Positions 19,036 through 47,008 of a stretch of DNA of 64,000 nucleotides are shown here, one piece after another. The notes beneath the pieces are model-generated. The model was not told where the DNA came from, ran no database searches, and saw nothing but the letters and a program-made list of their open reading frames with translations. This stretch comes from an uncultured Mycoplasmatota bacterium (GTDB lineage Bacteria > Bacillota_I > Bacilli_A > RF39 > UBA660), in NCBI GenBank assembly GCA_947166445.1, contig CAMVED010000003.1, positions 589 through 64,588 on the forward strand, written 5' to 3'. A program made the position numbers and the translations under genes. Positions within the stretch are counted from its first letter, which is position 1; every line of letters begins with the position of its first letter.

Positions 19036-19190
19036 ATTTTTCGCCCCAATCCTATTACATTTACATTTTATCATAAAACAAAATATTTTGTAGAAAAAAA
19101 TATGTTTTTGCGCAAAAAAGAGTTTTTCCTTTGATCCTTTTATTATGTGGTTTCAAACATATTCAATACACATAACGATTCCATTTGATT

Positions 19191-20714: not shown

Positions 20715-21146
20715 TTAGTTTACACAAGAAAGTAGATTTAAAGTCTTGGAATCTTTCTTTCCATTGTAAAACTTATCAATAATTTTTGAAAAAATATCTA
20801 TCGAAGGATCAATATAATTAAATAAAGTCATACAAGAGTTTAGTTTCAAAGCATCTATATATCCAAGAATATCATAAATGCTATCATTCAGCTTATATAA
20901 TTCTTCAGATATTTCTATTAAATGTTTTCTTAATATATCATTATTTAAATATTCTTTAGCTTCATCTATACTTTTAATAGAATAATAATTAGAGGTGGAA
21001 CTATGTCCTAAACCATTAATTTGAGGAAATATATACCATATCCAATGCGACCATTTTCTTCCGCTTTTTATTTCATATAATGCTTTATCATAATTACCTT
21101 CTTGTGCATCTATAAATCTTTGTAAGTTGTAAGGATCTGTTTTCAT
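20715..21146 (-). CDS. DUF1810 family protein
   Basis: DPYNLQRFIDAQ...YDKALYEIKSGRKWSHWIWYIFPQ matches the conserved DUF1810 N-terminus. Confidence 0.7.
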   Translation of the reverse strand: MKTDPYNLQRFIDAQEGNYDKALYEIKSGRKWSHWIWYIFPQINGLGHSSTSNYYSIKSIDEAKEYLNNDILRKHLIEISEELYKLNDSIYDILGYIDALKLNSCMTLFNYIDPSIDIFSKIIDKFYNGKKDSKTLNLLSCVN

Positions 21147-22081: not shown

Positions 22082-22157
22082 AATATCACCTAGAGATATT
22101 ATAACACACAAAAATAAAAAGAAAGGATTTGGTAACTAAAACAAATCCTCCTTAAAA

Positions 22158-23216: not shown

Positions 23217-23784
23217 CTTTAATTACCTCGTTTATCATATATTTTTTTATTGATTCATCATTTTTAATAAGTTTTTGATAAAGTCTATTTCTTTCATTTA
23301 TAGGGCGAATAATATCAATTAACTCATTTTGTTTATCTATTGGAACTAAAGGTATTTCTATTTCTTCTATATCCCAAAGAACTAATCCTTCTTCTCTACT
23401 TTTTCTTTCCATAATTTGATTTATCCCAAAGTATTCTAAATATTCTGCAATAAACTCAAGATTATAAAGATTATTATCATAAGGATTTCTTAAAACAAAG
23501 AAATTCTTTTTTATTATTACTTTATCATTATTAAGTGATGAACAATACCCAACATGATTTGTATTTTTCGAAGGTATTGAGGCTATTATAATGTCATTAG
23601 GTTTTAATAAGTACTTATCCTTTATATTCATTTTAATTTTTTGAACACCTGAATTTGAATAATTAATGACACAATTTTCAACATCTTTAGTATCAATTAG
23701 ATAAGCATCCATTGCTTCAAGACTGTTATCATTTTCTATACGTAGGCCTTTATAAATATCTTTAAAAATATCTTTTAATTTCAT
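23206..23784 (-). CDS. Type I restriction S-subunit-like protein (single target-recognition domain)
   Basis: LKDIFKDIYKG..., NDIIIASIPS..., FFVLRNP...EFIAEYL, IEIPLVPIDKQNELIDII follows the HsdS TRD plus conserved-helix pattern. Start moved to M6 (GAGGTGG RBS). Confidence 0.55.
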   Translation of the reverse strand: MKLKDIFKDIYKGLRIENDNSLEAMDAYLIDTKDVENCVINYSNSGVQKIKMNIKDKYLLKPNDIIIASIPSKNTNHVGYCSSLNNDKVIIKKNFFVLRNPYDNNLYNLEFIAEYLEYFGINQIMERKSREEGLVLWDIEEIEIPLVPIDKQNELIDIIRPINERNRLYQKLIKNDESIKKYMINEVIKDEK

Positions 23785-23837
23785 ACCAATCCACCTCATT
23801 AATTAAAATTATGCTATATTATATCACACTTTTTCAT

Positions 23838-23862: not shown

Positions 23863-24366
23863 TTATATATAATTCTTTTTTTCACTTTTCTTATTAAAAA
23901 TAATATCAATATTAATATCTTTTTTTATAATATAATCTTTAAATAATTTATATATTTTAGGACATATTTCATTTGATTTGTAATCATATATCTTGTTTTC
24001 GATACTAAAGCACAAAACATTTTTATATTCATTTTTATTTATAATATCAAGCATAGTGCTATAAGTATTTAATAATAATTTATTACATTCATTATTATTA
24101 AAATATGGATATCTTATAAACATTAGATCAGATTTCAATTTAAAACTTGGTGTGATTCTAATATCTCCTACTTTCATTCTTTTAATTAAAGTATACTTTT
24201 TATTAATATATTTTTTTAGAAGTTTTATATTTACTTTATTAAAAATAATAAATGATGCTTTATTAGTATTTTCCATTGTAGAAGTACATGGAATAACAAT
24301 TAAATCATAATTAGATAAAAGTTCTGTATATAAAACTTTTTTGGATACCAATCTAAGCCTACCCAT
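23863..24366 (-). CDS. Hypothetical protein, possibly a macro-domain-like fold
   Basis: DLIVIPCTS...GDIRITPSF...LMFIRYP...NVLCFSIENKIYDY loosely follows the macro pattern (IVNAAN / G.a.iT / viH..gP / siafP). Start M13 lies 1 nt after the upstream stop. Confidence 0.4.
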   Translation of the reverse strand: MGRLRLVSKKVLYTELLSNYDLIVIPCTSTMENTNKASFIIFNKVNIKLLKKYINKKYTLIKRMKVGDIRITPSFKLKSDLMFIRYPYFNNNECNKLLLNTYSTMLDIINKNEYKNVLCFSIENKIYDYKSNEICPKIYKLFKDYIIKKDINIDIIFNKKSEKKNYI

Positions 24367-24367
24367 T

Positions 24368-25675
24368 TTAAATGTCCTTTTTTTCTTTATTAAAACTATC
24401 AATTATTTCTTTTATTTCATTTTCAAACAATATTTTTTTATCCTTTAGTTCATTTGCTAAAGCATCTAATATATGTCTGTTTTCTATTAACATTGTTTTT
24501 ACTTCACTATAATAATCAGTTATAGTTCTATTAGCATTATCTTCTTTTGACATCTTTGCTTTTTCTGATGCTCCATAGAAATTACATGAATTAAAATCAT
24601 TCATACAATAGTCATCTACAAGTCTTCTTACAATAGTATAAGCTCTATCTAAATCTGAAGATGTACCAACATCACATGAATTAAAAACTACTTCTGTTGC
24701 AGCTTTTCCTGCAAGTAAAGTTTTAACTCTATTTGTCATAAATTTAATATCTGAGAAATAATCATCATTATTATGAAATGTTGTAAATCCTCTTGTATTG
24801 CTATCACTTTTAGCTATAGTAATGAATGATACTGAACCAGGTTCTAAAAGTTCTCCAATTAAAGCATGTCCAGCTTCATGATAAGCAACATTAATAGCAT
24901 AGTTATCTTCTTGGTTAATATCATTAATAACTGCTTCATATTTTAATTCAAGAGCAGCTCTAACTAAGTCTTCCATATATATTTTCTTTTTATTATCGTA
25001 TGCTGCATATATACCAGCTTGATTACATACATTTTCAAGTTCAGCACATGATGTATTTGATAATATACAAGAAATATTTTTAATATTTACATTATCATCT
25101 ATTTTTTTTGATTTTAAATAATGAGTAAATACTTTTACCATATCTTTTTCTTTAGGAATATCTATTAAAAGTCTATTATCAAGTCTACCTGCCCTTTTAA
25201 GTGATTTTGGTAAAGAACTTATATCGTTAGCAGTAGCAATTACATATATATCTTCATCTTTTATACTGTCTATAAACGATTGAACAGCAACATATTCTTC
25301 ATTATTATTAATAAAACCTCCATTTTCTGAAAACTTATCTATATCATCTAATAGAATGATTGAGGGTTGATTCTTCTTAGCTTTATCAAATATTCCATTC
25401 ATATAATTAATAAAACTTCCATCAGATTTTACCTTTCTAATAACATATTTTGTCCTTTGAACATTATTCATAATTTCATTAGCTATACTAGTTTTTCCAG
25501 TTCCGGGAGGACCATATAGTAATAAACCATGTGACATAGCACATCCCATTTTTTTATATTTTTTTCCATTGTTTAACATATCAACAATAGTTTTCAATGT
25601 TTTTTTGATATCATCATAACCTATAATGTTATCAAATATTTCTTTTTCTTTTTTTAATTCTTTTTCTTTTTCCAT
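24368..25675 (-). CDS. Soluble FtsH-like AAA+ ATPase fused to an M41-type zinc metalloprotease domain (no TM segments)
   Basis: Walker A GPPGTGKT, Walker B IILLDDID (Asp where FtsH has the catalytic Glu), RAGRLD, HEAGH zinc motif and a downstream SSDLDRA. Start at M7 with an AAGGAG RBS. Confidence 0.8.
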   Translation of the reverse strand: MEKEKELKKEKEIFDNIIGYDDIKKTLKTIVDMLNNGKKYKKMGCAMSHGLLLYGPPGTGKTSIANEIMNNVQRTKYVIRKVKSDGSFINYMNGIFDKAKKNQPSIILLDDIDKFSENGGFINNNEEYVAVQSFIDSIKDEDIYVIATANDISSLPKSLKRAGRLDNRLLIDIPKEKDMVKVFTHYLKSKKIDDNVNIKNISCILSNTSCAELENVCNQAGIYAAYDNKKKIYMEDLVRAALELKYEAVINDINQEDNYAINVAYHEAGHALIGELLEPGSVSFITIAKSDSNTRGFTTFHNNDDYFSDIKFMTNRVKTLLAGKAATEVVFNSCDVGTSSDLDRAYTIVRRLVDDYCMNDFNSCNFYGASEKAKMSKEDNANRTITDYYSEVKTMLIENRHILDALANELKDKKILFENEIKEIIDSFNKEKKDI

Positions 25676-25764
25676 AATATCTCCTTCTTTCAAATTCGAT
25701 ATTACTATTAATTCTTTGATATAGAAATGAATTATTTTGACTAAGGATTTAGTTAAATGATTAC

Positions 25765-25795
25765 ATAAAAAAAGTCATAGCTACAATTTGCTATG
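25765..25795 (-). terminator. Rho-independent terminator after the DUF262-DUF1524 gene
   Basis: Hairpin CATAGC-AAATTGTA-GCTATG followed by ACTTTTTTT on the minus strand. It overlaps the stop codon. Confidence 0.6.
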
Positions 25796-27439
25796 CTCTT
25801 TATTATAATCCTCTATTAGAACTGTATACAATTTGTCCCTTAAGTATTTACATTTATTTTCATCCCAAACTTCATCCTTCAAAGTAAGCTTTGTCATCAA
25901 TTGAAGTTTAATACTATATCTATCTATATTATTCTTAAAATAATTTGCCTTGTTCGAAGGAGTAGCATTCTGCATCTTTGTATTTGTACCGTATGCCAAT
26001 AATGCCAGATTGCCAAAATCGTGTACCCAATGTGAATTCTTTTCTTTATCATCATTCTCTCTTGAAAGAAAATGTTCAATTGAATTTCTAAATTTAAATT
26101 GAAAATTAGATAAATCCAATTCCTTTAGTAGCGGTATTGTTTTACTGATATTATCTTTATTAATTAATATTAAATAATCCAAATAATTTAGTACTATTCT
26201 TTGCGTTTCAAATCCTGTTTGGCACTTTTCTTTTTCATATAGTGAAATAAAATCTCTAATGTATTCGTTTCTTATAAATGATCTTATATAATTAACATAA
26301 TCTTGATTTTTTCCATTATTGTGGAAAAACTTAAGTGTTTCAAATAACCATTTCATTTGTTTTCTATCAGTAAATGATACTCTTAAACAAGATTGAATAC
26401 GTATTATATCTTTATTTACATCTTTATTATTTAATATCCATTTGTCATCCTCAGAACTAGATTCATTATCTCTTCTTATTATTTTTTCATCATAAATATT
26501 TTTAGTTTTGATTAAAAAATCTAGAAAATCTAACACTTCTTGTTCATTTGATTGTTTAAAAGTCTCATCGTACTCTCCTACTAAATCTTTTAATTCAAAT
26601 AATTTATTATCATTTTCTTTATGCAGAATTATACTTCTATATAGTCTTATTGTATATAACAGAAAGTATTCAAAATCTAATATAGAGTTTTCGTTTTCAA
26701 TTTCTTCGTTTTTATTATTTTCAACTATACTATTCTTCTGATTAAGCATTTGATTAATAGTTAATTCTTTATATTCATTCTTATAAGGAACAGACTTAAA
26801 TTTATCAAATCCTTTTATACTCATTTTTTCATATTCATTCCATAAATTATTTATTCTTTTTTTATATGCATTATTGTTTTCATTTATTTTTGATATTAAT
26901 TTAGCTTTTATCATATCGCTTCTACTTAATTGAACGCCTCTAGAATTCATAACTTCAAAATAATGATTTAAGTCTTTTTCATCTTTATCAATATTTATTT
27001 CATAAAAATAAACATTTTCTAATTTGGAACGCATTTTCTCTACTCCGTATTTTTCAATTGTATTCTCGATTAGTCTATATTTATCATATAAAATATTCTC
27101 ATCTTTTTGATTATTTTGTTTTAGGAGTTCTTTAAGACTATTTTTTTTGTTTGTAATTTCATCAACTTCATATGTTAAGTTGATTTGGTTTTCATTTTTT
27201 ATAAAACCACATGCTATTGCAATCATATAAATCGTTGTTAATCTTTGCTGGCCATCAATTAAAACATATTTATCGTTATTTTGATTTACAGTAGTGACTC
27301 CTATACAATATTTATCTTTACTATTATAAATATCATCGATTAACTCTTCTATTTCTTTTACTTCCCAAGAGTATTCTCTTTGAAAGCAAGGAATAAAGTA
27401 TTCTTTTTCAAATGACTTAATTACTTTAACTGTTCCCAT
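25781..27439 (-). CDS. DUF262 + DUF1524 protein (GmrSD-like type IV restriction family)
   Basis: N-terminal FQREYSWE and DGQQRLTT (DUF262/ParB-like). C-terminal IEHFLSRE...NLALLAYGTNTKMQN (His-Me finger, DUF1524). Confidence 0.8.
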   Translation of the reverse strand: MGTVKVIKSFEKEYFIPCFQREYSWEVKEIEELIDDIYNSKDKYCIGVTTVNQNNDKYVLIDGQQRLTTIYMIAIACGFIKNENQINLTYEVDEITNKKNSLKELLKQNNQKDENILYDKYRLIENTIEKYGVEKMRSKLENVYFYEINIDKDEKDLNHYFEVMNSRGVQLSRSDMIKAKLISKINENNNAYKKRINNLWNEYEKMSIKGFDKFKSVPYKNEYKELTINQMLNQKNSIVENNKNEEIENENSILDFEYFLLYTIRLYRSIILHKENDNKLFELKDLVGEYDETFKQSNEQEVLDFLDFLIKTKNIYDEKIIRRDNESSSEDDKWILNNKDVNKDIIRIQSCLRVSFTDRKQMKWLFETLKFFHNNGKNQDYVNYIRSFIRNEYIRDFISLYEKEKCQTGFETQRIVLNYLDYLILINKDNISKTIPLLKELDLSNFQFKFRNSIEHFLSRENDDKEKNSHWVHDFGNLALLAYGTNTKMQNATPSNKANYFKNNIDRYSIKLQLMTKLTLKDEVWDENKCKYLRDKLYTVLIEDYNKEHSKL

Positions 27440-28710
27440 AATCTCCTCCTTGTCTCTGCTAATCCAGTACCGGTTTTTTTAGGCTCAACTCCAATTTCTG
27501 GATAATTTAGTTTATATAACTCTTCAATACTTAAAGAGTTTGTACATTCAAAAAAGAAATTATCATTATTAAGAATATAATTATTTATAGTTAAATACTT
27601 TACTTGTTCATTATTTATACGATGAATTATTACCCATTTATATAGAAAATCTTTAATTATTTCCATTTCATAGTCCTTAACAGTGCCATATTTATTTATA
27701 AACATAAATAATGCATCATAATATACTATATTTATAAACTTATAATCATAATTAAACCATTTTTCTGGATAATCATTTATTTGGGTATCTTTTAAAACTT
27801 TATTATACAAATTGTACTTTTCAATTATGTTATCATATGATTCTATCAGATTTTCAACCATAAGAAAGAATGAAATTCCTTTTTTAAAAGGTTTATTTAA
27901 TAAAAATATACTATCTGATACAGATTTATAATATTTAACATAATTATACTCATAATTTTCACTATTGCTATATCCCTTATATAAATATATATCATTCTTT
28001 GAAAAATCTTTCCTTTCTTTATTTAATGACCAATTGTATATATTAAACAAAACATCATCAAACAAAAATTGAATTTTATTTTTCCTTGAAATTAGTTTAG
28101 AAGGTTCTTTTATATATTTGTCCCATATTTCTAATGCTTGTTTTTTTTCAGATTTACTATTTATTGCACCCAAGTGATAGGCTTTTAATAAATCAATTGG
28201 ATCTAATTGCTTAAACTTTGAATTTCTTCCATCAAATAATTGAAACGCTTCATTTTCATCACTTGCTGTTAATATAAAAAACTTAATTTTGTATTTAACA
28301 TATTTAACAAATTTATTAATATCAAATTGATCATCTTTAGTTAATCTTTTTATATATTCTTTTATTTCATTATTATTTGAAATTATTCTATTTACAGTAT
28401 TTGAAACACATTGTATTTTCTCATTAAGTATTTTCATTCCATCATCTAAACCTAACTCTTTGCATAGTAATGCTAAAGATATTATTCTTTGTTGACCATC
28501 TACAATATCATAATTATTCTTATTTTTTAATAAGATAATTGTTCCTAAATTTATTTCTTTATCACATATAAATTCGTTATATATATCATTTAATAATATC
28601 AATATATTAGACCTTTCCCATTCATATGGACGTTGATATAAAGGAATTTGTAAATTCATTTGTAAAAGTCTAAATAAACTATCCGTTTTTATTCTTTTCA
28701 ATATGATCAC
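27421..28710 (-). CDS. DUF262 domain protein (partner of the GmrSD-like gene)
   Basis: LYQRPYEWE and DGQQRIISL. 19-nt overlap with the downstream gene. No clear DUF1524 motif. Confidence 0.75.
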   Translation of the reverse strand: MIILKRIKTDSLFRLLQMNLQIPLYQRPYEWERSNILILLNDIYNEFICDKEINLGTIILLKNKNNYDIVDGQQRIISLALLCKELGLDDGMKILNEKIQCVSNTVNRIISNNNEIKEYIKRLTKDDQFDINKFVKYVKYKIKFFILTASDENEAFQLFDGRNSKFKQLDPIDLLKAYHLGAINSKSEKKQALEIWDKYIKEPSKLISRKNKIQFLFDDVLFNIYNWSLNKERKDFSKNDIYLYKGYSNSENYEYNYVKYYKSVSDSIFLLNKPFKKGISFFLMVENLIESYDNIIEKYNLYNKVLKDTQINDYPEKWFNYDYKFINIVYYDALFMFINKYGTVKDYEMEIIKDFLYKWVIIHRINNEQVKYLTINNYILNNDNFFFECTNSLSIEELYKLNYPEIGVEPKKTGTGLAETRRRLWEQLK

Positions 28711-28817: not shown

Positions 28818-30059
28818 TTATTTTTTTAAGCTATGTATTGTTTTTGATCCTTTGTGACTAGAACCCCTTAATAGGCTTGATACTATTGGCTCCCATTCAT
28901 GTCCACATATTTTACATTTTGCTTTAACAGGATAATGCCTTCCCTTATACTTACCTATTATTTCTACATTTGGATTCTTAATTTTTAGTTCTTCAATTAG
29001 CTTTTTTTCATCTTTTAAGAATTTCTCATGAGCTTTTATCGTTCCACATTTTTTACAGCCATCACCTCTTATTAAATTTGCTGGTATTCCCCTCCACTGA
29101 AAACCACACTTTTTACATTTGACAAGAATTCTTCTGTTAGCGTTTTCGTATTTTCCAATCACTTTTACAGAAGGTAAAATCTTATACATTTCTTTTAAAA
29201 AATCTTCGTGAGTTTTACATTTAGCTAAAGAATACGCTTGTGTTTCAATATCGTTCCACTCGTTTTCATTAAAATCACATTCTATGCCGCATACCTTAAA
29301 TAAATCTGCTACCAATTTTTTTATTTCTTTTCTATCAGATTTATTATAATCATCTTCAAACACAATACAGTTATCTTTGAATGGTTTTATCTCATTTTTT
29401 GGGAACTTATCATATACTGTTATCAATTTAAATCCTTTATTATTACAAAGCTCTCTTTTTTTCTCATCTCTTTTTATATATTTTCTATGTAAAAACCAAT
29501 TTCCGGGTTCTATAGCTATTTTTAATTTTGGTATTAAAATATCAAGTTCCATACCAATTAGTTTCCTATCTCTAGAAATAACTTCAGCTTCTGATAGTTT
29601 CTTTATAAAAGAAATCCTAATAAATTGTTCCATAAAACTTGTGCCTGATTTAGCACACCTAGGACATCCGTGTCCTTGTAATAGAGAATAAGCTCTTGCT
29701 TCCCATTCATTATTACATCTATTACATTTACATTTTATCATACTTTTATTATTGCTATAATTTGATTTTACAAGTATATCTTTATTAATTTTATACAATT
29801 CATTTATAAAGTCGTCCTGACTTTTTCTGGCTGTTAAGCCTTTATTATTATTTAATCCTCTAATCGTTTTACATTTTGGACAAGCTCTTCCAGATAATAA
29901 GGAATAGGCTTTAGCATCCCATTCAAATCCACATTTATTACATTTAGCTTTTATGTAATCTGTTGCTTTTGTATATTTACCAACAATAGTAACTTTATTA
30001 TTTCTATTTTTTATTTCTTTAATAAATTGCTCATGAGTTTTTGTCAAAGATATCACCAT
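28818..30059 (-). CDS. Four-fold zinc-ribbon repeat protein with central Vsr/DUF559-like endonuclease core
   Basis: Four modules of the form KC.KCG.EW.....SLL.G.GCP.C; the last has lost its second Cys pair. The central MELDILIP...IAIEPGNWFLH...KGFKLITVYD resembles a Vsr-type PD-(D/E)xK fold. Confidence 0.55.
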   Translation of the reverse strand: MVISLTKTHEQFIKEIKNRNNKVTIVGKYTKATDYIKAKCNKCGFEWDAKAYSLLSGRACPKCKTIRGLNNNKGLTARKSQDDFINELYKINKDILVKSNYSNNKSMIKCKCNRCNNEWEARAYSLLQGHGCPRCAKSGTSFMEQFIRISFIKKLSEAEVISRDRKLIGMELDILIPKLKIAIEPGNWFLHRKYIKRDEKKRELCNNKGFKLITVYDKFPKNEIKPFKDNCIVFEDDYNKSDRKEIKKLVADLFKVCGIECDFNENEWNDIETQAYSLAKCKTHEDFLKEMYKILPSVKVIGKYENANRRILVKCKKCGFQWRGIPANLIRGDGCKKCGTIKAHEKFLKDEKKLIEELKIKNPNVEIIGKYKGRHYPVKAKCKICGHEWEPIVSSLLRGSSHKGSKTIHSLKK

Positions 30060-30200: not shown

Positions 30201-30450
30201 CGGTTTAGATTTTTAAGAATATTTCGCAAAATGTCAAATCTTTTTCAAAGCCATTTTTGCCTTAAAAATACTTTGCTTTGAACGGTTTTTTCCTGTATGA
30301 ATACCTTTGGTGAGACGTAACATTTTTTATTTCAATTTCTTATAAGATGCTATATTTTACATTTTAAGTACCACTTTTTAAGCCAAAAATACTTGACTTT
30401 AATCAATAAAAGAGTGATTAATACAATACCTTTTGAAGGGAGGTATTATA

Positions 30451-30708
30451 TTGAAAGCTAAAGAAATATTAGAAATAATTTCTATGCCCTGGTGTTCTAA
30501 TCAAGATATCATGAAAATTGGTAATGTATCCACTTCTACTGCAAGTAAAATAAAGAAAGTAATAGAAAGTGAATTCAGAAAAAAAGAGCCAAACAAATTC
30601 ATGCCTGCTCACTGTGTTCCAACTAAAGAAGTAATCAAATATTTTGATCTTGATATTGAGTTTTTAAAATCTGTTATTTATCTAGATAAAGAAGAAAGAG
30701 TTGAATAA
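30451..30708 (+). CDS. Small DNA-binding-like protein (HTH/excisionase-like?)
   Basis: TTG start 6 nt after GGGAGG. NQDIMKIGNVSTSTASKIKK is HTH-like. Start codon uncertain. Confidence 0.45.
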   Translation: MKAKEILEIISMPWCSNQDIMKIGNVSTSTASKIKKVIESEFRKKEPNKFMPAHCVPTKEVIKYFDLDIEFLKSVIYLDKEERVE

Positions 30709-30719
30709 TTTTTCGACTC

Positions 30720-31769
30720 TTATTTTATTTCATTTGCTATAACAATTCTTAATTTTTCAAGATCAATTTTTTCTTCGTTCACATATTCATTTTTTCTAGC
30801 AATTATTTTATTCCAAATACTCAGTATTTTTTTATTATTTATAATTTTATCGTCAAGTTTATAATCCTTTTGTAGTAATTCTTTGTGTACAAATAAAGAT
30901 ACAATAGTATTATCTATTATTGTATGAATTTTTTCTTCACTTCTATCAAAATTACTACTAATTAAGTTTAGATAGTAAACAACTTCTTCTCTAAAAACAA
31001 ATAAATCCAAATTTAAAATATCAGATAAATATATTAAATCAATAGCTTGACAAAATCTTCCATATAAGAATTCATATAAAGCTTCCATAATATCCATTGG
31101 ATTAGATGAGTCTATAATTCTTCCACTGCTTTTACAAAAATTAACAATTTTTTCTGTTATATTTTTACTTATATCTTTTTGGTGAGTAAATATGTAATCG
31201 GCTTTAACAAGCTTATTTAGTTCTTCTACATCATTAACACTTTTAGAATAATTTATCAAATCTTCATTACTTTGAATTGGATAATTAGTAAATTCAGTCA
31301 ATGATTGATATGTAAATCTGTTACTAATATAGTTTATATCATCTGAAATATCTGGATAATACAACCTCATTGGAACTATCAATATGTTATTTTTATTGAT
31401 TAATTTTTTATTATCTATAATATTATCAACAATACATATCAAGATTTCTATAATTCTATTTTCATCTATTACATCGTTCAATCTAAACATATTAATCATT
31501 TTACAAATAGGTTCATCCATTATTACCGCATTATTAATGCATAAAGGCAACTTGTGCTCATATTCACTAAAATGAATATACATAGCACCACCAATATATG
31601 AACACTTTTGATATTTTAAAAATTCACAAATAAACTGTTTTTTCTTCATCCAAAATAATTCTATTTCATCCAAAACATCCAAAAACTCATCTTGATTACT
31701 TAATCTTAGTTTTAATTTTTCTATTAACATCAAATATTGCTTATTAATATTTATTATTCTATGATCCAT
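30720..31769 (-). CDS. Hypothetical 349-aa protein (island A cargo, gene 2 of an unknown pair)
   Basis: Long ORF with an 11-nt overlap onto the upstream gene. No motif recognised. Confidence 0.6.
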   Translation of the reverse strand: MDHRIININKQYLMLIEKLKLRLSNQDEFLDVLDEIELFWMKKKQFICEFLKYQKCSYIGGAMYIHFSEYEHKLPLCINNAVIMDEPICKMINMFRLNDVIDENRIIEILICIVDNIIDNKKLINKNNILIVPMRLYYPDISDDINYISNRFTYQSLTEFTNYPIQSNEDLINYSKSVNDVEELNKLVKADYIFTHQKDISKNITEKIVNFCKSSGRIIDSSNPMDIMEALYEFLYGRFCQAIDLIYLSDILNLDLFVFREEVVYYLNLISSNFDRSEEKIHTIIDNTIVSLFVHKELLQKDYKLDDKIINNKKILSIWNKIIARKNEYVNEEKIDLEKLRIVIANEIK

Positions 31770-33195
31770 ACTTTCTCAATTCCTCTATTTTGAAATTTTC
31801 ATACTGTGAATTCAATAATTCTATAAATTTATTGGAAATCTTTATCATATCTGATTTTATACTTGAACACTTAACTTCAAAATTAATGTCTGACTGAAAA
31901 TGACTTTTATGCAATGGATTAGAACAAGAAACAGTAGCACTTTCTCTTATAGCACCCCAATGACCATGTGAAAACTGCACATCATAATCATACAATAAAT
32001 CATACAATTCTTTCTCGCCTATTTCTTTAAATCTATCTTTAATACTTTTTTTATCAAAATAACCCAAGTTAACATCAAGATATTCCTCAGATTTCAGTTC
32101 ATTGGAAAGAGCTTCCAACACTAAAGGTAACATATGTCCATATTCTTTTATTTTGTTATCACGTGCTTTAACATTGATAAGTTTATAATGTCCTAATCCA
32201 TCCTCAATATAATCTATGTATATATTTGGATTGGTCTTTTCTTCAACAACTAAAAATTTAGCAATCACGTAGCAATCCATTAACGTTCTCATTAGAATTC
32301 TACCTGATATTTTAAAGTATAAATCGTTCTCATCAATTTCGTTCATTATTTTTAAAAAATAATTAAAAATTGAAGTTAAAACATTGAATTTTGTATTGTC
32401 AAAATCTTTAGAATTTTCACAAACTAATAATGATAACTGTTTTTTTGCTTCTTGAATATATTCTTTCATATTTACATTACACCTTTCTTTATAATCTATA
32501 TAAAAGTTATCACAATCACTTACTTTACCAAGAACATCCCAAAAATATAAATAATAGTTTCTTGGTTCATATATAGGCTCAGCAGCTATTTCTGTACTTC
32601 TAATCAAGGATCTATATAATTTCATTCTTTCATCTGTATGATCTAAATAGCAATATTCTTTAATTGCATCCATTGTTTCCATTTCCTCAATAAAATGAAG
32701 CTTACCCTGCGCAAATAAAAAATAAACTATAATAAATCTTACATCAGTAGATACTTCTGAATGATCATCAATTAAATTTTTAATATTTTCTTTTATTTGA
32801 TTTATTCTATACTTGTTTGGCATCTTAAAATCATAAAATTTTTTTCTATACAATTCATTATTATCACAAACACAACAAAAAACATCCATTATAGTTTTGT
32901 CAATTGTTAATGCAATAAAATCATATAATTCACAATTGTTCAATTCTAACAAAGAAGAAAATCTTAAATCATTTATTTCAAGCTTATTATTTACTATGTA
33001 TTCAATAATACTATATACTTTCTTAAATCCTTCTTTGCGACCATACTTATTAAGTATACATCCAAGCCATAAATATTCAGGGACTCTTTCCTTATACCAA
33101 GATCTCAGAGTAAATTTATCGCCTATTACTGCATTCCATGGAGTTAACAATTGCTTCTTGACCAGTTTATGTTCTTTTAGTGTGCTATTACGCAT
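31759..33195 (-). CDS. Hypothetical 478-aa protein (island A cargo, gene 1 of an unknown pair)
   Basis: Start moved to MRNSTLKEH (AGGAGG RBS). All-helical looking, with a FSHGHWGAIRE motif near the C-terminus. No family recognised. Confidence 0.6.
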   Translation of the reverse strand: MRNSTLKEHKLVKKQLLTPWNAVIGDKFTLRSWYKERVPEYLWLGCILNKYGRKEGFKKVYSIIEYIVNNKLEINDLRFSSLLELNNCELYDFIALTIDKTIMDVFCCVCDNNELYRKKFYDFKMPNKYRINQIKENIKNLIDDHSEVSTDVRFIIVYFLFAQGKLHFIEEMETMDAIKEYCYLDHTDERMKLYRSLIRSTEIAAEPIYEPRNYYLYFWDVLGKVSDCDNFYIDYKERCNVNMKEYIQEAKKQLSLLVCENSKDFDNTKFNVLTSIFNYFLKIMNEIDENDLYFKISGRILMRTLMDCYVIAKFLVVEEKTNPNIYIDYIEDGLGHYKLINVKARDNKIKEYGHMLPLVLEALSNELKSEEYLDVNLGYFDKKSIKDRFKEIGEKELYDLLYDYDVQFSHGHWGAIRESATVSCSNPLHKSHFQSDINFEVKCSSIKSDMIKISNKFIELLNSQYENFKIEELRKYGS

Positions 33196-33302
33196 ATTTA
33201 ACCTCCTATCAAAAAAGTAGAGCATACCCCATTATTAAAATGAAATATTCTCTACTATCTGTAATTATATTATACCACTATTTCAATAAATATTAAACAC
33301 TT

Positions 33303-34238
33303 TTATAAAAAATAATCTTTTAATACTTCATCTAACATACCATATTTAGCTAAATGATAATTCATTAAATAATCCAGATTTCTAAACCCTTTTTGTAATT
33401 GATTCTTATCTTTATTATCCCAACACATTCCATCTGTTAATAAAATAAATCCTATATTAAGTTTCTTTAAATCATTTTGTCTATTTATGTAACTATCTAT
33501 AATTTCTTCCGGTTTTGAACCACCTCTAAAGAAATAGTCAACTTCTATATTTAATACTTTATTTTCTTTTACTAAAATAAAATCTGCTTTTCTATTTGCG
33601 ACATCCGAAGACACTTTAAATCCATAATCTTTCAATACTTTAAATTGTTTTTGAGATATCAAAGATATATCATATTTTTTACATACTTCAGAGATAATTG
33701 GCTCACATGCATCTTCAAATGCAGTTCCTCCTCTATTCTTTCTGCCATTTGAATCTAAGCCAACTAAAACTCCTATAACATAATCAATAACACTTTTTTC
33801 TAACAGGTTTTCAAACAAATCTTTTAATCCCATTTTTTCGAAAAAGATATAGTATATTTCAATCGTTTCATCAGATAGTCCACCACTTATTTCATTTACA
33901 TTAAAATTATATGAATAAAAATCATCTTCATCTAAATCTTCATTTACTACTTGTAGATCATTTTTACCTTTCCAAACATCTTTGCGTTCACTTTTAGAAA
34001 GGGCAAATAATAATGGAAAAGTTGCTATTACTGTAGGAATCTTTCTTGCTAATTCAACAAATTTCTTATGAATATCATCACATCTTATTAAAACATTCAT
34101 AGCATTTAATTCTATCTCAAAATTTCTATAATCAAGTACATTGCCCCAATTAACATAGAAGTTAAATCCTCTATTAGTTGCAACTAAATTATCAACGAAT
34201 AATTCAGCTAATTCATCATTACTCATATTTTTATACAT
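33303..34238 (-). CDS. dpnB: Type II restriction endonuclease, DpnII/MboI family (GATC)
   Basis: DYVIGVLVGLDSNGRKNRGGTAFE and NIEVDYFFRGGSK closely parallel S. pneumoniae DpnII (DYVTGVEVGMDTNGRKNRTGDAME; IEVNFYSGSGSK). Confidence 0.85.
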   Translation of the reverse strand: MYKNMSNDELAELFVDNLVATNRGFNFYVNWGNVLDYRNFEIELNAMNVLIRCDDIHKKFVELARKIPTVIATFPLLFALSKSERKDVWKGKNDLQVVNEDLDEDDFYSYNFNVNEISGGLSDETIEIYYIFFEKMGLKDLFENLLEKSVIDYVIGVLVGLDSNGRKNRGGTAFEDACEPIISEVCKKYDISLISQKQFKVLKDYGFKVSSDVANRKADFILVKENKVLNIEVDYFFRGGSKPEEIIDSYINRQNDLKKLNIGFILLTDGMCWDNKDKNQLQKGFRNLDYLMNYHLAKYGMLDEVLKDYFL

Positions 34239-34995
34239 TTTCTTCTAACCTCCTAATTGTAAGATCTAAATAATCTTTTTCTTTATCAATTCCTATATAT
34301 TTTCTTTTTAGCCTACTGGCAACAATGCCTGTAGTTCCACTACCATTGAATGGATCAAGTATTAAATCCTTTTCATCTGTAGATGCAAGTATTATTTTTT
34401 CTAGAAGTGCTATTGGTTTTTGTGTAGGATGTTTACCACACTTTTTTTCACTCGGTTTAGTTAATGATGTTTCCCATACATCTTTCATTTGTTTACCATC
34501 ATTTAATTCTTTCATCACATCATAGTTAAATTTATGTTTAGCTTTTTTTATGTCTTTTTTAGCCCATAAAATCGTTTCTGTTGAGTGAACAAAGGCACGA
34601 CAGCTAATATTAGGAGGCGGATTTAATTTCTTCCATGTGATGTTATTTATAACCTTAAATCCCTCTTCTTCAAGTGCCATACCAATTGAATAAATATTAT
34701 GCATCGTTCCACTTATCCATATTGTTCCATCATCTTTTAAAACTCGCTTACAGGCTCTTATCCATTTCTTATTGAAGTTATGCTTTTCTTTGATGCCTAT
34801 CTTCTCATCCCATTCCCCTTTTTTAACTGATACCATTTTACCTGCACTACAAGTTATTCCATCTCCTGACAAAAAATATGGAGGATCTGCAAATATCATA
34901 TCAATAGTTTGTGGCTTGATTTTTTTCAATAATAAAAGGGCATCGCCATGCAATAATTTAAAATCATCTTTTTCGTAGTAATAATCCTCACTCAT
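34231..34995 (-). CDS. dpnA: N6-adenine DNA methyltransferase, N4/N6 (DpnA-like) family
   Basis: FADPPYFL motif IV precedes DPFNGSGTTG motif I. Start moved to M4 (AGGAGGTG RBS). Confidence 0.85.
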   Translation of the reverse strand: MSEDYYYEKDDFKLLHGDALLLLKKIKPQTIDMIFADPPYFLSGDGITCSAGKMVSVKKGEWDEKIGIKEKHNFNKKWIRACKRVLKDDGTIWISGTMHNIYSIGMALEEEGFKVINNITWKKLNPPPNISCRAFVHSTETILWAKKDIKKAKHKFNYDVMKELNDGKQMKDVWETSLTKPSEKKCGKHPTQKPIALLEKIILASTDEKDLILDPFNGSGTTGIVASRLKRKYIGIDKEKDYLDLTIRRLEENV

Positions 34996-35029
34996 GTAAT
35001 GCACCTCCTATATATATTATTACCTTAAA

Positions 35030-35881
35030 TTATGAAAACTCCTTACTATTTTCGTAATTTGTTATAATTACTTCTTCAACTTTACCTCTTTTTTTCCCAT
35101 TGGAATTTATATTTCTTTTAGCTTCAATAATATAGATATTATAGTCTTTATATAATTCATTGATTAATACTGTATTATGATTAGAAAGCATTACATAACA
35201 TCCTTTGTCAGATAATTCTTTATAAACTTTAGCTAATCTTTTTTGTTGTTCTTTTCCAAATCCATCTTCAGTATAACTATTAAATGTTGAGGTATCTGAA
35301 TCATATGGTGGATCAAAATATATAAAATCACCTTTTTTAGCATCTTTCACTGCTTCTTCAAAATCCACACTCAATATTTTAATATCATTCATTGTTAAAT
35401 AATTGCTAACTGTTATTAGATTACCACCCTCGTAAGTATTAACTTTTAATTTCTTACCAAATGGAACATTAAATTCATTCTTGCTATTTACTCTATATAA
35501 TCCATTAAAACAAGCTTTATTTAAATAAATTGTTCTTCCTGCTCTTGTATAATCTGATAGTCTATTAAATGATGCTTTATTTCTATCTTTATTTCTTATT
35601 TCATAAAAGAAATCTTCACTATGATTTGCTTCATAATTATTCAAAACATTACACATTTTTTTAAATTTATCTTCATCACATAAAACTTTGTAAACATTTA
35701 TAAGTTCTTCATTCGAATCATTGATAACTGCTTTTTTTGGAGATAATTCAAACAATAATGCGCCACCACCGACGAATGGTTCATAATAAGTATTAAACTC
35801 ATCAGGCACATATTGTAATAATTTATCAATTATTTGTCTTTTTCCTCCAACCCATTTAACAAATGGTTTTGCTTTTATCAT
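35030..35881 (-). CDS. dpnM: Dam-type (D12 class) N6-adenine DNA methyltransferase (DpnM-like)
   Basis: KPFVKWVGGKRQ, EPFVGGGA and FIYFDPPY. Start moved to M6. Confidence 0.9.
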   Translation of the reverse strand: MIKAKPFVKWVGGKRQIIDKLLQYVPDEFNTYYEPFVGGGALLFELSPKKAVINDSNEELINVYKVLCDEDKFKKMCNVLNNYEANHSEDFFYEIRNKDRNKASFNRLSDYTRAGRTIYLNKACFNGLYRVNSKNEFNVPFGKKLKVNTYEGGNLITVSNYLTMNDIKILSVDFEEAVKDAKKGDFIYFDPPYDSDTSTFNSYTEDGFGKEQQKRLAKVYKELSDKGCYVMLSNHNTVLINELYKDYNIYIIEAKRNINSNGKKRGKVEEVIITNYENSKEFS

Positions 35882-36024
35882 GTTATCTACCTCCAATTAA
35901 GTACATATTAATTATACCATTAAAATAATATTTTTCCTATAAAACTAATTATTAATTACACAATTTTTAATAATACTTGCAATATCTTTTAATTTAAGTG
36001 ATTAATACAACAGGAGGTATATTT

Positions 36025-36348
36025 ATGATCAGAAAATCTAATGGAAAAGATATTAGTGAAGAAGAATGGAACAATGTATTAAATCCTTTTTATGATAATT
36101 ATACTAATTTTATGGAAAGTTATGTTATGCCAGAAGTTATTGCTTTTTATATAGCAAGTTCCTTTTACAGAAATGCTATGTGGGAATCTACTTTTAAACA
36201 ACATTATAATTCTGGAAAGGAATATTTAAATATTTTTGATGAGAACTATAGAAAAGTAAAATCTGAAGTTATTAAATTATTAAGAATTAAATATTCCTTA
36301 GAAATCACTAATGAAAATCCTTTAGAACTTAAAAAAATAGAGTATTAG
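36025..36348 (+). CDS. Conserved island protein (paralog of 46573-46896), function unknown
   Basis: AGGAGG RBS. Clearly homologous to the island B copy (shared PEVIAFYIASSFYRNAMWE and KLLR.KYSLEI.NE.PL), and the upstream DNA is also conserved. Confidence 0.65.
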   Translation: MIRKSNGKDISEEEWNNVLNPFYDNYTNFMESYVMPEVIAFYIASSFYRNAMWESTFKQHYNSGKEYLNIFDENYRKVKSEVIKLLRIKYSLEITNENPLELKKIEY

Positions 36349-36463
36349 TATTTGCTAATCTCTTTTCTATTACAAAAAAAGAACAAGAGTACGGGTAAAA
36401 TCCCGCAGTCAAGTTCCTATTTACTTCTATCATTCTTTTTGTTTATTGTCAAGAAAATTCAAT

Positions 36464-36643
36464 TTATTCAACATCTTCACTAAGCTCAACATAATCTTCT
36501 AATGTTCCTATACGTCTTAAATAGTCATGTCCTCCATCAACTGCAATTGCCCCACATTTGCAATACTTGAAATCATGTCTATGTTTAGATTCAATTACAT
36601 CTCCACATTTTTTACATTTAACTTTATTGGTTATTATACTCAT
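36464..36643 (-). CDS. Small zinc-ribbon protein
   Basis: CKKCG...CKCG Cys4 pattern. Start moved to M23 (AGGAGG RBS). Confidence 0.5.
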   Translation of the reverse strand: MSIITNKVKCKKCGDVIESKHRHDFKYCKCGAIAVDGGHDYLRRIGTLEDYVELSEDVE

Positions 36644-36696
36644 TATTCTTACCTCCTGAAGCAACAATACTACAACAATTCTAATAAGTCTATATA

Positions 36697-36805
36697 ATTT
36701 ATTTTCCAAAAAACTCAGGGAAAATATAAAATTGTGTGAATGGAGGTGGCTGGTCGGTCTAGAAATTTACCAAATTAAAAAGAGTTATCCCTGGGGGGGT
36801 ACTCT
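36697..36805. repeat. Conserved non-coding block shared by islands A and B (copy A), ending in a GC hairpin terminator
   Basis: ATTTATTTTCCAAAAAACTCA.GGAAAATATAAA.TTGTGTGAAT..AGGTGGC... aligns with 47088-47195. The hairpin plus T-run on the minus strand follows the replisome-organizer stop. Confidence 0.7.
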
Positions 36806-36820
36806 TCGTTGGTTATATTT

Positions 36821-37648
36821 TTAGTAATAATTTTCTATGAATTTAGAACGCCAATCTGTTTCAATTCTTGCAGGTGTTTCATGTAAATAAGATTTAAAAG
36901 AATTACCAAATAATGTTATAGGTCTTAAGTATTCTTCATAATCATCATTACCTATCCACTCATATACTTTATTATCTATAACCTTATAAAAATCTTCTAA
37001 CTTATATCCATCATTTAATCTTTGTTTGATCAAACTAACTGTTTTTTTAGAATCAGGTTTGAAGTTTTTATAAGCTTTTTTATTTAAGTAATTAATTACA
37101 CTACTACATATATCCTGCAAAGCAGGATTTTCTACAACTTCTAGTTGTTCAAAAGAACAATTATAATTTTCTTCTTTTATATTTCTTTCTTCTAATATCT
37201 GATTTCTAATATCTAAGTTCTGATTTCTAGTTTCTTCTTCTGGTGGACAATCAGGTGGACATTTGTCCACTTTTCTTTTTCTTTGTTTTTGTTTCTTTTC
37301 AGCACTAACAGTTTGATTAGTATAGTTAAGAGCTTTCTCGATATATAACATACCATCTTTTGAATCTATAAGGCCTACTTCATGTAATCGATCAATTCTT
37401 CTTACTAAATCTCCCACATCAGTATTAGTCTTTTTGGCTAAAACTTCTATTGTATATGGTTTTAATTCTCCTGATATTAACCTACATAAATATCCACATT
37501 TGTTCATAGCTATTGTTATTAATTTTAAGTATAAAATAATTGTACTATCCCCATCATAATCATTTGATAACTCCTCAATTTCATCAGTATCAAAAAAAGA
37601 ATCAGGGAACTTAAAAAAGTACATCTCTGTTTTATTATACTTGGCCAT
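36821..37648 (-). CDS. Phage replisome organizer / conserved phage C-terminal domain protein (DnaD-like)
   Basis: The N-terminus YFFKFPDSFFDTDEIEEL is typical of the phage replisome-organizer N-terminal region. The C-terminus VINYLNKKAYKNFKPDSKKTVSLIKQRLNDGY is typical of the conserved phage C-terminal domain. Confidence 0.7.
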   Translation of the reverse strand: MAKYNKTEMYFFKFPDSFFDTDEIEELSNDYDGDSTIILYLKLITIAMNKCGYLCRLISGELKPYTIEVLAKKTNTDVGDLVRRIDRLHEVGLIDSKDGMLYIEKALNYTNQTVSAEKKQKQRKRKVDKCPPDCPPEEETRNQNLDIRNQILEERNIKEENYNCSFEQLEVVENPALQDICSSVINYLNKKAYKNFKPDSKKTVSLIKQRLNDGYKLEDFYKVIDNKVYEWIGNDDYEEYLRPITLFGNSFKSYLHETPARIETDWRSKFIENYY

Positions 37649-37956: not shown

Positions 37957-38180
37957 ATTTTTTGATTACCTATGACTAATTCTTTGCAATCCGCTGAATA
38001 TACAACATCACCATATTTAACATTGTATAAACTTAATATTTCACTTAATCTTTTAAAGTCAGGATGCGTTTTATTATTCTCATAGCTTCTTAATGTTTCA
38101 GTACTTATATTTAACTTACTACATGCTTGTTTAAGAGTTAATCCTGCATTTATTCTAAGTGCTCTTAAAGATATTTTCAT
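37950..38180 (-). CDS. XRE-family HTH regulator (Cro-like)
   Basis: LRINAGLTLKQACSKLNISTETLRSYENNK HTH. Divergent from the cI-like gene. Confidence 0.8.
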   Translation of the reverse strand: MKISLRALRINAGLTLKQACSKLNISTETLRSYENNKTHPDFKRLSEILSLYNVKYGDVVYSADCKELVIGNQKIV

Positions 38181-38326
38181 ATGTCTACCTCCTTTCTATT
38201 TTCAATTCAATTATATCGCACACTTTTGTATTTGTAAATACTTTTTATGAGATATTTAACATTTGTTTTGTTTTATACTTGACAAATATTACATTTTACT
38301 TTATTATCTTAGTAGGAGGTAAAAAT

Positions 38327-38998
38327 ATGATTAAGCGTGAAGAAAGACAAATCATATCTGATAATCTTAAAGTTCTACTTAGTCAAAGTAAAAAGAAAAG
38401 GACTGAGGTTGCTAAAGATCTAAATGTTAAGTATTCAACATTTTGTGATTGGGTTCGTGCTAGAACTGCTCCTGATGCTAATCAAGTAAAAAAACTAGCA
38501 GATTATTTCAAAGTGAGTGTTGGAGAAATAACTAATCGTAATGAGGATCACAATAATATATCTGATTCTGAGATACTAGATAGTAAAGTTAGAGTAACGA
38601 TATTCAAAACAGTTGAATGTGCAGATGGTAGCACTGCTTATGATACTGACTACGAGTACATTGACAAATATCTTCCTGGAGTTCAAGAAAGCATAGGATT
38701 TAGATTAAATGATGATTCTATGGAACCCGAATATCATAAAGGAGATATTATCATCGCTAGAAAAGTAAAATATTTAAATAGTTGTGGTGACTATATCTTA
38801 GATACTAATTCATCAAGTGAGTGGTTTCCTGATCTTAGATTAGTAAGAGTTATTCCTAAAGGTCAAGAAGTAATTATTACTCCACTTAACATTGATAATG
38901 AAAAAGGATTAATGCCTGAACGATTGAATGAAATGGAATATATGAAAAAATATCATAGCATTTATTCTGTTATTCGTTTAATAAGGAATTATAAATAA
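38327..38998 (+). CDS. CI/LexA-like repressor (XRE HTH + S24 peptidase domain)
   Basis: N-terminal HTH (KKKRTEVAKDLNVKYSTFCDW). C-terminal LNDDSMEPEY...GDIIIARK (S24 Ser/Lys dyad pattern). ATG follows a GGAGGT RBS. The track ORF start at 38159 was rejected. Confidence 0.8.
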   Translation: MIKREERQIISDNLKVLLSQSKKKRTEVAKDLNVKYSTFCDWVRARTAPDANQVKKLADYFKVSVGEITNRNEDHNNISDSEILDSKVRVTIFKTVECADGSTAYDTDYEYIDKYLPGVQESIGFRLNDDSMEPEYHKGDIIIARKVKYLNSCGDYILDTNSSSEWFPDLRLVRVIPKGQEVIITPLNIDNEKGLMPERLNEMEYMKKYHSIYSVIRLIRNYK

Positions 38999-39085: not shown

Positions 39086-39182
39086 TAATGTTACATCGGC
39101 TTTCCATATATAAATTATAACACAAATGTAAAATTTTACAAGTTTTTAGGCATATTTTGGTATTTTTCAGAAAGGAAAAGTT

Positions 39183-40298
39183 ATGCCTGTATATAAAGAT
39201 AAAGTCACCACTAAAGATGGAAGATGCTGGTACTTTAGATCCAGATATCAAAAATTAGATGGCACTCGTACTCAATATCACTCTAAAAGATACATGACCA
39301 GAAAAGAAGCACAAGAAGCTGAAGCAGAGTTTCTAATTAAATCTAAAGAAGCCGCTAATGTCAGTACTCTTAATTTTAAACAGCTTATTAACTTATTTAT
39401 TGAAAATAGATCTACAATTGTGAAAGGTACAACCATGTACAATTACAAAAATAAAAAAGTTTATTTGGAACCATTATATAATGTAAAATTAAAAAACTTT
39501 AATATTGATATTTACGAACGCTGGAGAAAATATATAATTACTTGTAATCTTTCTACTCGTTATAAAAATGATATATATAAGTTTTTAAAATCATTACTTA
39601 ATTATGCTTCTGATTGGTATGGATTTAGTTTTGCACATGTATATAGAAAAATGCGTAATTTTAACGATCCTAATGAAATACCCAAGGAAATGCAATTTTT
39701 TACTTATGATGAATTTCAAAAGTTTTTATCTGTAGAAGAAGATATCAAATTTAGATGTGCTTGGCAACTACTCTACTACTGTGGATTAAGAATTGGTGAA
39801 TTAAAAGGTATTACATGGAAGGATATTGATTTTGAAAATAGAAAAGTTACTATTAACAAACAAATCACTCAACAATCATGTCGTACTAGATGGCAATTTG
39901 CACCACCTAAAACTGCTAAAAGTAATCGAGTGTTACCACTTACTAAAGTTCTTGTTAATGACCTTAAAAAACTAAAAGAAAGCGATTCAGATATACTATT
40001 TGGATTCAATGATTCATATTTTGTCATTGGTGATGTGGCTCCACAAATAAGTAGTACTATTACCTCTAGAAAAAATCGTAATTGTGAACTTGCTGGTGTT
40101 AAGCAAATCAGGATCCACGATTTCAGGCATTCGTGTGCTTCACTACTTATTTATAAAGGTGCTACTATAAATACTGTATCAAAGTTCTTAGGTCATTCTA
40201 AAATTGAAGAAACTTTGAATACTTATACTCACTTATATAAAAATGCTTTGACTGATATAACAGCTTTAATTGATGAAATGAATGAAGGCCAGGATTAA
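39183..40298 (+). CDS. int: Tyrosine recombinase (phage integrase family), island A
   Basis: LRIGEL...(R), HDFRHSCASLL and LGHSKIEETLNTYTHLY (R-H-R-Y catalytic pattern). Confidence 0.9.
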   Translation: MPVYKDKVTTKDGRCWYFRSRYQKLDGTRTQYHSKRYMTRKEAQEAEAEFLIKSKEAANVSTLNFKQLINLFIENRSTIVKGTTMYNYKNKKVYLEPLYNVKLKNFNIDIYERWRKYIITCNLSTRYKNDIYKFLKSLLNYASDWYGFSFAHVYRKMRNFNDPNEIPKEMQFFTYDEFQKFLSVEEDIKFRCAWQLLYYCGLRIGELKGITWKDIDFENRKVTINKQITQQSCRTRWQFAPPKTAKSNRVLPLTKVLVNDLKKLKESDSDILFGFNDSYFVIGDVAPQISSTITSRKNRNCELAGVKQIRIHDFRHSCASLLIYKGATINTVSKFLGHSKIEETLNTYTHLYKNALTDITALIDEMNEGQD

Positions 40299-46423: not shown

Positions 46424-46572
46424 ATTACCACCCTCATCGCTTAGCAATTCTCTTAACTAAAATTATATCACAAAAATGCAGTTTTTTATTACATATACAC
46501 ATTAATTATTAAAAATTGTTTAAATCTTGCATTATTTTTAATTTAGAGTAATTAATACATACGGAGGTGTTT

Positions 46573-46896: not shown

Positions 46897-46950
46897 TGAT
46901 TACTAATCTCTTTTTTTTATTGTAGTAGTAATACAATAAAAATATATATT

Positions 46951-46999: not shown

Positions 47000-47008
47000 G
47001 GAGGTCAT

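Follow-up and report, generated by a model that had tools for sequence, protein, structure and literature searches.

The window analysed here, a stretch of 64,000 nucleotides (nt) from an uncultured Mycoplasmatota bacterium (contig CAMVED010000003.1), holds two overlapping genes directly downstream of a DpnII restriction-modification (RM) cassette, and the question that this locus raises is whether the two form a defence system and, if so, which one. The initial annotation, made from the sequence alone, had proposed an undescribed two-gene defence or abortive-infection module. Herein we identify the pair, with high confidence from sequence comparison, as a divergent Aditi system, ditA followed by ditB, and what is new is the combination of DpnII and Aditi as cargo around this divergent copy. 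The gene pair and its flanking signals are:

31759..33195, minus strand: ditA, 478 amino acids (aa), 57 kDa; PADLOC DitA, with Pfam DUF5677 at aa 271-419.
30720..31769, minus strand: ditB, 349 aa, 42 kDa; PADLOC DitB, without a Pfam domain.
33196..33302, minus strand: DpnII-ditA spacer, 107 nt, with a Shine-Dalgarno motif and a promoter-like site.
30696..30721: hairpin with a 10-base-pair stem directly after the ditB stop, a terminator-like pattern.

According to the open reading frame (ORF) table, the two genes overlap by 11 nt (31759-31769). Counted from its first ATG, the ditA ORF (31759..33225) would encode 488 aa, and translation beginning at 33195, likewise an ATG, gives 478 aa. An AGGAGG Shine-Dalgarno motif precedes the latter by 7 nt, no such motif was seen on reading the sequence ahead of the upstream, 488-aa ATG, and DitA homologues measure 477-480 aa with the first residue of the 478-aa form. 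Because of this spacing and of the lengths and start residue of the homologues, we consider the 478-aa start to be correct, and the two overlapping genes of 478 and 349 aa at 30720-33195 stand as the initial annotation had drawn them.

Using the models of PADLOC-DB v2.0.0, the 478-aa protein matched DitA (PDLC03826, 4.6e-129, with aa 2-466 covering positions 2-473 of the 486 in the model) and the 349-aa protein matched DitB (PDLC03827, 5.7e-31, aa 2-349 on positions 6-355 of 361). The Pfam match in DitA is to PF18928 (1.3e-16), a Pfam scan of DitB found no domain, and NCBIfam and PHROGs gave nothing useful on either protein. Aditi was defined and named by Millman et al. in 2022 as a system of two proteins of unknown function (bioRxiv 10.1101/2022.05.11.491447). 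Table S24 of that study lists the DitA (483 aa) and DitB (372 aa) of Saccharibacillus kuerlensis DSM 22868 (F456DRAFT_scaffold00011.11) as “Verified”; this system is construct SG143, verified in Bacillus subtilis, with a 3.1-kilobase (kb) insert on which DitA and DitB are the sole listed genes, and DefenseFinder was updated with all systems of the study (bioRxiv 10.1101/2022.05.11.491447). By BLASTP, the window proteins align to those of S. kuerlensis at 31.5% identity over 476 aa for DitA (E-value 2e-79) and 24.5% over 273 aa for DitB (E-value 2e-10). One locus of our scan of species genomes (L050) is the same contig as the verified pair, and Table S24 also lists Butyrivibrio sp. LB2008 (L073), Eubacterium uniforme (L079) and C. 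jeddahense JCD (L063) as Aditi.

All the sequence- and synteny-based traits that define Aditi were found in the window pair, and neither a placement in another family nor a tendency of DitB-like genes to lie away from DitA was seen. A two-gene defence module, as first proposed, is upheld through the homology of the pair to a system verified by experiment, and the suggested resemblance to DUF5677 is upheld as well. The epithet “undescribed” falls, since Aditi was named and validated in 2022 and has models in PADLOC-DB, and abortive infection found no support here or in the Aditi literature searched. Current defence-annotation models already label ditAB as Aditi, so that the pair is no stand-alone discovery; Aditi is among the few validated systems described without a recognisable domain, and on its mechanism the literature searched turned up catalogues and reviews alone.

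The distribution of the pair supports its reading as a unit. A scan of the species genomes with DitA as a single sequence returned nothing and an alignment-based rescan worked, yielding 141 DitA relatives (one genome per species), from which the best 80 were kept. In 75 of these 80 loci, DitA is followed on the same strand by an ORF of 349-383 aa, whose start lies anywhere from 59 nt ahead of the DitA end to 23 nt beyond it, and all 75 ORFs are DitB homologues by jackhmmer (weakest E-value ~1e-56). The five exceptions are four contig ends and one locus (L008) that holds both genes, each fragmented. DitB therefore accompanies DitA, directly downstream, in 76/76 evaluable loci, which bears out the co-occurrence that the initial annotation had named as a check. 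When loci are compared pairwise, the identity of DitA and that of DitB are correlated (r = 0.94), with DitB the more divergent in 99.8% of pairs (mean identity 0.27 vs 0.44 for DitA). In comparison with the nearest relatives (aa identity of 84% and 76%), the ratio of nonsynonymous to synonymous substitution rates (dN/dS) was 0.09 for ditA and 0.16 for ditB, low values from which it follows that both genes are kept by purifying selection, and no close relative has a disrupted ORF for either gene.

At a broader level, an exhaustive profile search (E-value up to 1e-3) retrieved 1,568 DitA-family clusters at 50% identity, and among the best 150 of these nearly all are full-length at ~480 aa, with four exceeding 600 aa. 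No DitA homologue was found in the phage genomes of the collection, and DitA is therefore not a typical phage-borne gene; two plasmids encode it, annotated as “DUF5677 domain-containing protein”. Defence or mobile neighbours were present in three of the four distant DitA loci sampled (a small sample, without a statistical test): L091 adjoins a CBASS-like E2/E1/JAB gene, a patatin gene and an integrase, L092 adjoins a complete type I RM system, and L089 lies near a GIY-YIG/DUF2075 gene. In S. suis, type IV RM and a number of PDC candidates reportedly occur together with Aditi (PMC12813430). The defence context of ditAB in the window comprises the DpnII RM system, GmrSD-like genes and a flanking IetA-like AAA protease, and the neighbouring islands add a type III RM system and a PDC-S49 candidate.

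How the two proteins might work can be approached through their predicted structures and conserved residues. The AlphaFold2 model of DitA, built on a 45-sequence alignment, is confident (predicted local distance difference test (pLDDT) 90.8, predicted template modelling score (pTM) 0.81) and consists almost entirely of helices plus a small hairpin at 421-435, in agreement with the helical character that the initial annotation had assigned to the larger protein. The FSHGHWGAIRE motif that it had singled out occupies aa 406-418, and no other motif of the family, in which it reads HGxWGAIRE (aa 410-418), is better conserved (H410, W413, G414, R417, E418). Down to ~30% identity, 24 positions of DitA are invariant in the alignment (5 His, 2 Cys, 5 Asp/Glu and 5 Arg/Lys being among the residues), and they include D151, H186, R199, C228, R299, R303, K313, K338, H354 and E394 as well as Y402, H410, W413, G414, R417, E418, C424, H429, H432 and D449; in the alignment of 76 pairs, 21/24 are conserved to at least 95%, with H186, H354 and R195 below. 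DUF5677 matches all 45 aligned family members and spans about a third of DitA, its model reaching neither the first 270 aa nor the Cys/His hairpin at the C-terminus. Four of the invariant residues, C228, C424, H429 and H432, are kept in all four DitA relatives above 600 aa and form a candidate, probably structural, Cys2His2 zinc site that would tie the C-terminal hairpin to the helical body.

The AlphaFold2 model of DitB (44-sequence alignment, pLDDT 88.8, pTM 0.86) is mixed alpha/beta, with four short strands (56-59, 82-85, 129-132, 254-257) amid helices. Two DitB residues are invariant (Y12, F39) and others nearly so (W40, E/D86-P87, D119, P133, Q241, P256, R259), and they include no conserved catalytic-looking set. 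Neither DitA nor DitB contains transmembrane-like segments, and the idea that the two are distant paralogues was rejected (hhalign probability 0.1%).

Among the long DitA relatives, P0173 (701 aa) has HEPN_AbiV (PF18728, 9.2e-11) as an extra domain at its C-terminus, with an RRFKDH (Rx4H) motif recognised by eye, and P0181 (681 aa) has a C-terminal tail of 190 aa. No DitB homologue lies within 5 kb of either (L084-L086 for P0173, L087-L088 for P0181). The context of P0173 is archaeal-looking (PF01941 AdoMet synthase, TrmB), with no obvious defence island, and the P0181 locus adjoins HigB, Peptidase_M78 and integrase genes. A further candidate, P0162, was set aside as a likely chimeric or truncated protein, its N-terminus being of type IIG and its C-terminus of DitA. 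Pfam gave no HEPN match in window DitA, window DitB or 85 family members, and a HEPN-like nature of DitB or of the DUF5677 region of DitA was rejected at the sensitivity of these comparisons, as hhalign against the HEPN tail of P0173 returned a probability below 1%. The simplest reading of a HEPN domain or other tail in DitA proteins that lack DitB is that a fused nuclease-type domain can replace DitB; on this view, the core that senses or regulates would be DitA, and the output would be DitB.

By analogy with the verified homologue in B. subtilis, window ditAB probably protects its host against some phages. Verified Aditi reportedly restricts phages phi105, rho14 and SPP1, according to the DefenseFinder knowledge base. 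In the mechanism that we propose, DitA and DitB would act as a stoichiometric complex produced through coupled translation. DitA, a conserved all-alpha core with its probable structural zinc site and a conserved charged surface, would sense infection or regulate the output, and DitB, the faster-evolving partner, would deliver or gate that output; in the single-gene relatives without DitB, the C-terminus of DitA would bear the HEPN_AbiV RNase domain or the uncharacterised tail in its place. We advance this sensor-plus-output model tentatively and regard it as doubtful. A more specific version, in which DitA is a zinc-stapled sensor or regulator of new fold with interchangeable outputs (DitB as an effector with a fold absent from the PDB, HEPN_AbiV or the tail when fused) and the window and L004 copies are a distinct subtype, possibly of different activity or trigger, is in our judgement unlikely.

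Several observations weigh against these proposals, on activity as well as on mechanism. The second Aditi operon tested, SG144 of B. simplex, is marked “x”, not verified (bioRxiv 10.1101/2022.05.11.491447), and homology to Aditi is therefore no guarantee of activity. Window DitB and the DitB of L004 (11448-12539, Bacillales UBA5026), its sub-clade partner, are the only 2/76 without the near-invariant D66, H82, P256 and R259, the replacements being D66 to H, H82 to V (V/L), P256 to L and R259 to F; judged by these changes, window DitB belongs to a rare sub-clade and may behave differently. One of the four sampled distant loci (L090) lies among housekeeping genes. With regard to mechanism, no recurrent Pfam family other than DUF5677 occurs in the DitA family, and whole-chain Foldseek comparison gave nothing significant for DitA in the PDB (best E-value 2.6) and BFVD (best E-value 0.83) or for DitB in the PDB (best E-value 0.18), with TM-scores for both proteins of at most 0.4, and of 0.1-0.15 for the top-ranked, which were treated as noise. 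Profile searches of PDB sequences returned no matches with DitA and one chance match with DitB (E-value 1.3); a PDB copy of 2026 served for both the fold and the sequence searches. The zinc site is a candidate read from conservation, and the PD-(D/E)xK-like pattern (“SDIVIID...TIVEIK”) seen in the tail of P0181 found no Pfam or profile support and is a motif-level remark. Finally, the many invariant polar residues of DitA are no less in keeping with an enzyme than with a sensor.

This last point underlies a possible alternative, in which DitA is itself the enzyme or effector, a metal-dependent hydrolase or a nucleic-acid modifier (H186, H354, H410, E418, D449 and the Arg/Lys cluster), with DitB as a specificity or phage-sensing subunit or an antitoxin-like inhibitor. 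Such a division of labour agrees with the pattern of conservation no less well than the sensor-plus-output model, given the 24 invariant residues in DitA against two in DitB, and the faster divergence of DitB is as expected of a phage-contacting component. It has to contend with the lack of any known catalytic motif or fold match and with two long DitA variants (P0237, P0229) in which E418 and G414 are lost while the Cys/His set stays, and the fusion of HEPN with an intact Rx4H motif in variants without DitB is simpler if DitA is not the effector. The invariant DitA residues, the candidate Cys2His2 site, the co-diverging pair, the DitB-less fusions and the DitB sub-clade all provide leads on the mechanism of Aditi.

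We consider it improbable that ditAB is a toxin-antitoxin-like addiction module that stabilises the island without an anti-phage role in the host, or an inactive or diverged copy. The tight coupling of the two genes, their location in a mobile island, the unverified second operon and the altered near-invariant DitB residues would suit such a reading, but purifying selection acts on both genes and neither ORF is broken in any close relative. Moreover, neither of these large proteins (57 and 42 kDa) resembles a toxin-antitoxin family in Pfam, NCBIfam or PADLOC, and the verified homologue defends, defence and addiction not being mutually exclusive. Anti-phage defence by an Aditi system remains our preferred reading, and the relation of the pair to the cassette upstream has to be considered next to it. 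The cassette consists of:

35030-35896, minus strand: Dam methylase, D12 class (Pfam, PADLOC).
34231-35004, minus strand: N6_N4 methylase (Pfam, PADLOC).
33303-34238, minus strand: DpnII endonuclease (PF04556, 2.1e-73).

The Pfam and PADLOC matches of these three genes confirm the position that the initial annotation had given to the pair, on the same strand and directly downstream of a DpnII cassette, and this cassette (33303..35896) is adjacent cargo outside Aditi. The three closest contigs (L001-L003) share Dam, the second methylase, DpnII, DitA and DitB, with nucleotide synteny at 85-86% identity over ~5.6 kb (36366..30718). The synteny stops 2 nt past the ditB stop, where L001 and L002 go on with different genes, and from this break it follows that DpnII and Aditi form a discrete cargo block. 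Across the 80 more distant loci, a DpnII homologue near DitA was found in none and relatives of either methylase in 2/80 for each, the linkage of DpnII and Aditi being confined to relatives at 84% identity. Within the 5.6-kb block, synonymous divergence (dS) from L001 was 0.46 for DpnII, 0.80 for ditB and 1.05 for ditA, an unevenness that suggests a mosaic history or recombination within the cargo block. On account of the 0/80 loci and the about two-fold gap in dS, we regard the DpnII linkage as lineage-specific and not part of Aditi.

The expression signals in the spacer bear on the same relation. A consensus scan located a promoter-like TTAATA-16-(TG)TATAAT with an extended -10 at 33296-33269, a pattern match in an AT-rich region in which 45 such sites were found vs 52 expected from shuffles, which makes the call weak, and a pattern-based terminator scan found no terminator-like site between DpnII and ditA. 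Taken together, the promoter-like site and the absent terminator indicate that ditAB probably has its own promoter and that read-through may also occur. Of the operon that the initial annotation had assumed to be shared with the dpn genes, the uninterrupted passage without a terminator-like site speaks in favour and the weak promoter-like site in the spacer speaks against. At the other end, the 30696-30721 hairpin is common to ditB and a convergent 91-aa ORF (30433-30708, plus strand), and its pattern makes it a likely bidirectional terminator ending the ditAB unit. The 91-aa ORF lies just beyond the block conserved in L001-L003 and had no match in Pfam, NCBIfam or PHROGs. An Rfam scan of 28-37 kb returned nothing, and no tRNA genes were found in the window.

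That ditAB is an accessory of the DpnII cassette (for example its controller, a sensor of the methylation state or a nuclease in reserve) can be set aside as highly improbable: the shared strand, the 107-nt spacer without a terminator-like site and the conservation of the whole block in three relatives would suit it, but it is largely refuted by the distribution (no DpnII and hardly a methylase near distant DitA genes), and the verified clone with DitA and DitB alone, the separate histories suggested by the dS gap and the promoter-like site in the spacer also stand against it.

As an Aditi system, the pair takes its place in a series of islands, whose other features in the window are:

39183-40298: tyrosine integrase of island A.
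38159-38998: helix-turn-helix protein of island A.
36821-37648: phage replisome-organiser gene of island A.
47712-48836: integrase of island B.
42156-46447: type III RM system, cargo of island B.
48851-50746: PDC-S49 candidate, 631 aa (5.5e-53), the next cargo gene.

The backbone of island A lies at higher coordinates than its cargo and also holds a Cro-like ORF. As the initial annotation had it, ditAB occupies the distal cargo end of an integrase-bearing element, a placement that the integrase, the replisome-organiser gene and the end of synteny 2 nt after the ditB stop support, and the type III RM system that it had reported for island B is present. Of the traits that bear on a PICI or satellite label for the island, the integrase, helix-turn-helix and replisome-organiser genes were found. 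No convincing attachment (att) repeats were found at the integrase junctions, and the left island boundary, and with it the term “distal cargo end”, accordingly rests on the synteny break. The backbones of islands A and B share segments at 71-85% identity (36022-36768 vs 46570-47159, and 39102-39157 vs 47633-47688), with segments at 79-85% among them, and the sequence that follows DitB in L001 matches window positions 50924-50708 together with the 3' end of integrase B. The window contains a tandem array of related integrase islands that differ in the defence genes they carry (DpnII plus Aditi, type III RM, PDC-S49), and the locus is a clear example of how such related tandem islands swap it.

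Further defence-type or orphan genes lie at lower coordinates, all on the minus strand. Just past the end of the DpnII-Aditi block, 28818-30059 encodes a 413-aa protein with repeated CapR/DUF4379 treble-clef zinc fingers, which matches PHROG 559 “HNH endonuclease” (4.7e-51) and has no PADLOC match. At 25781-28710, two adjacent GmrSD-type genes overlap by 19 nt, one with GmrSD_N and DUF7834 (429 aa) and one with GmrSD_N and GmrSD_C (552 aa); both match the PADLOC models HEC-06, Orf5 and SspE-like, and their arrangement resembles that of a paired module similar to type IV restriction. At 23863-25693, the IetA-like gene, for a soluble 441-aa protein with AAA+ and Peptidase_M41 (FtsH-like) domains (PADLOC IetA, 8.9e-24), overlaps by 35 nt a 179-aa ORF with weak matches to macro domains (which bind or hydrolyse ADP-ribose) at E-values of ~1e-3, far below curated cut-offs. 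No IetS partner is present, and the two genes may constitute an unlisted two-gene defence module. The remaining genes comprise an orphan half-size type I HsdS-like gene (23206-23799), a 352-aa ORF without database matches (22158-23216), an ADP-ribosylglycohydrolase (21149-22111) followed by DUF1810 (20715-21146), and a protein with NERD and HRDC domains (18034-19074).

Comparison with known systems places the window pair at different distances from several of them. In Lamassu, LmuB is paired with LmuA, whose effector domains vary (Millman 2022), and the conserved DitA core with its alternative outputs (DitB, HEPN or another tail) resembles this arrangement; unlike Lamassu, Aditi has no SMC or ATPase component, no nucleoside triphosphatase (NTPase) motif and no sequence relationship to it, and its alternative outputs are rare, with four of the best 150 clusters above 600 aa. 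As to AbiV and HEPN (PF18728), the DitA homologue P0173 connects an RNase output of Abi type with the DitA module, and window DitA and DitB are without HEPN similarity, which makes this a functional analogy and not membership. Window DitA does share its domain with the DUF5677 proteins (PF18928). Of the ORFs tested in E. faecalis, five conferred defence, and a single DUF5677 ORF, which may or may not be a DitA or have a DitB partner, was not one of them (PMC12632615). The closest comparison is with the Aditi system of S. kuerlensis, from which the window pair differs in its low identity (31.5%/24.5%), in the four near-invariant residues missing from DitB and in being joined to a DpnII cassette in an integrase island, the last of which is not a general Aditi trait. 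The two nevertheless consist of the same two families in the same order and on the same strand, with abutting or overlapping genes of similar size (483/372 vs 478/349 aa), and window DitA keeps every residue that is invariant in the family, including HGxWGAIRE and the Cys/His set.

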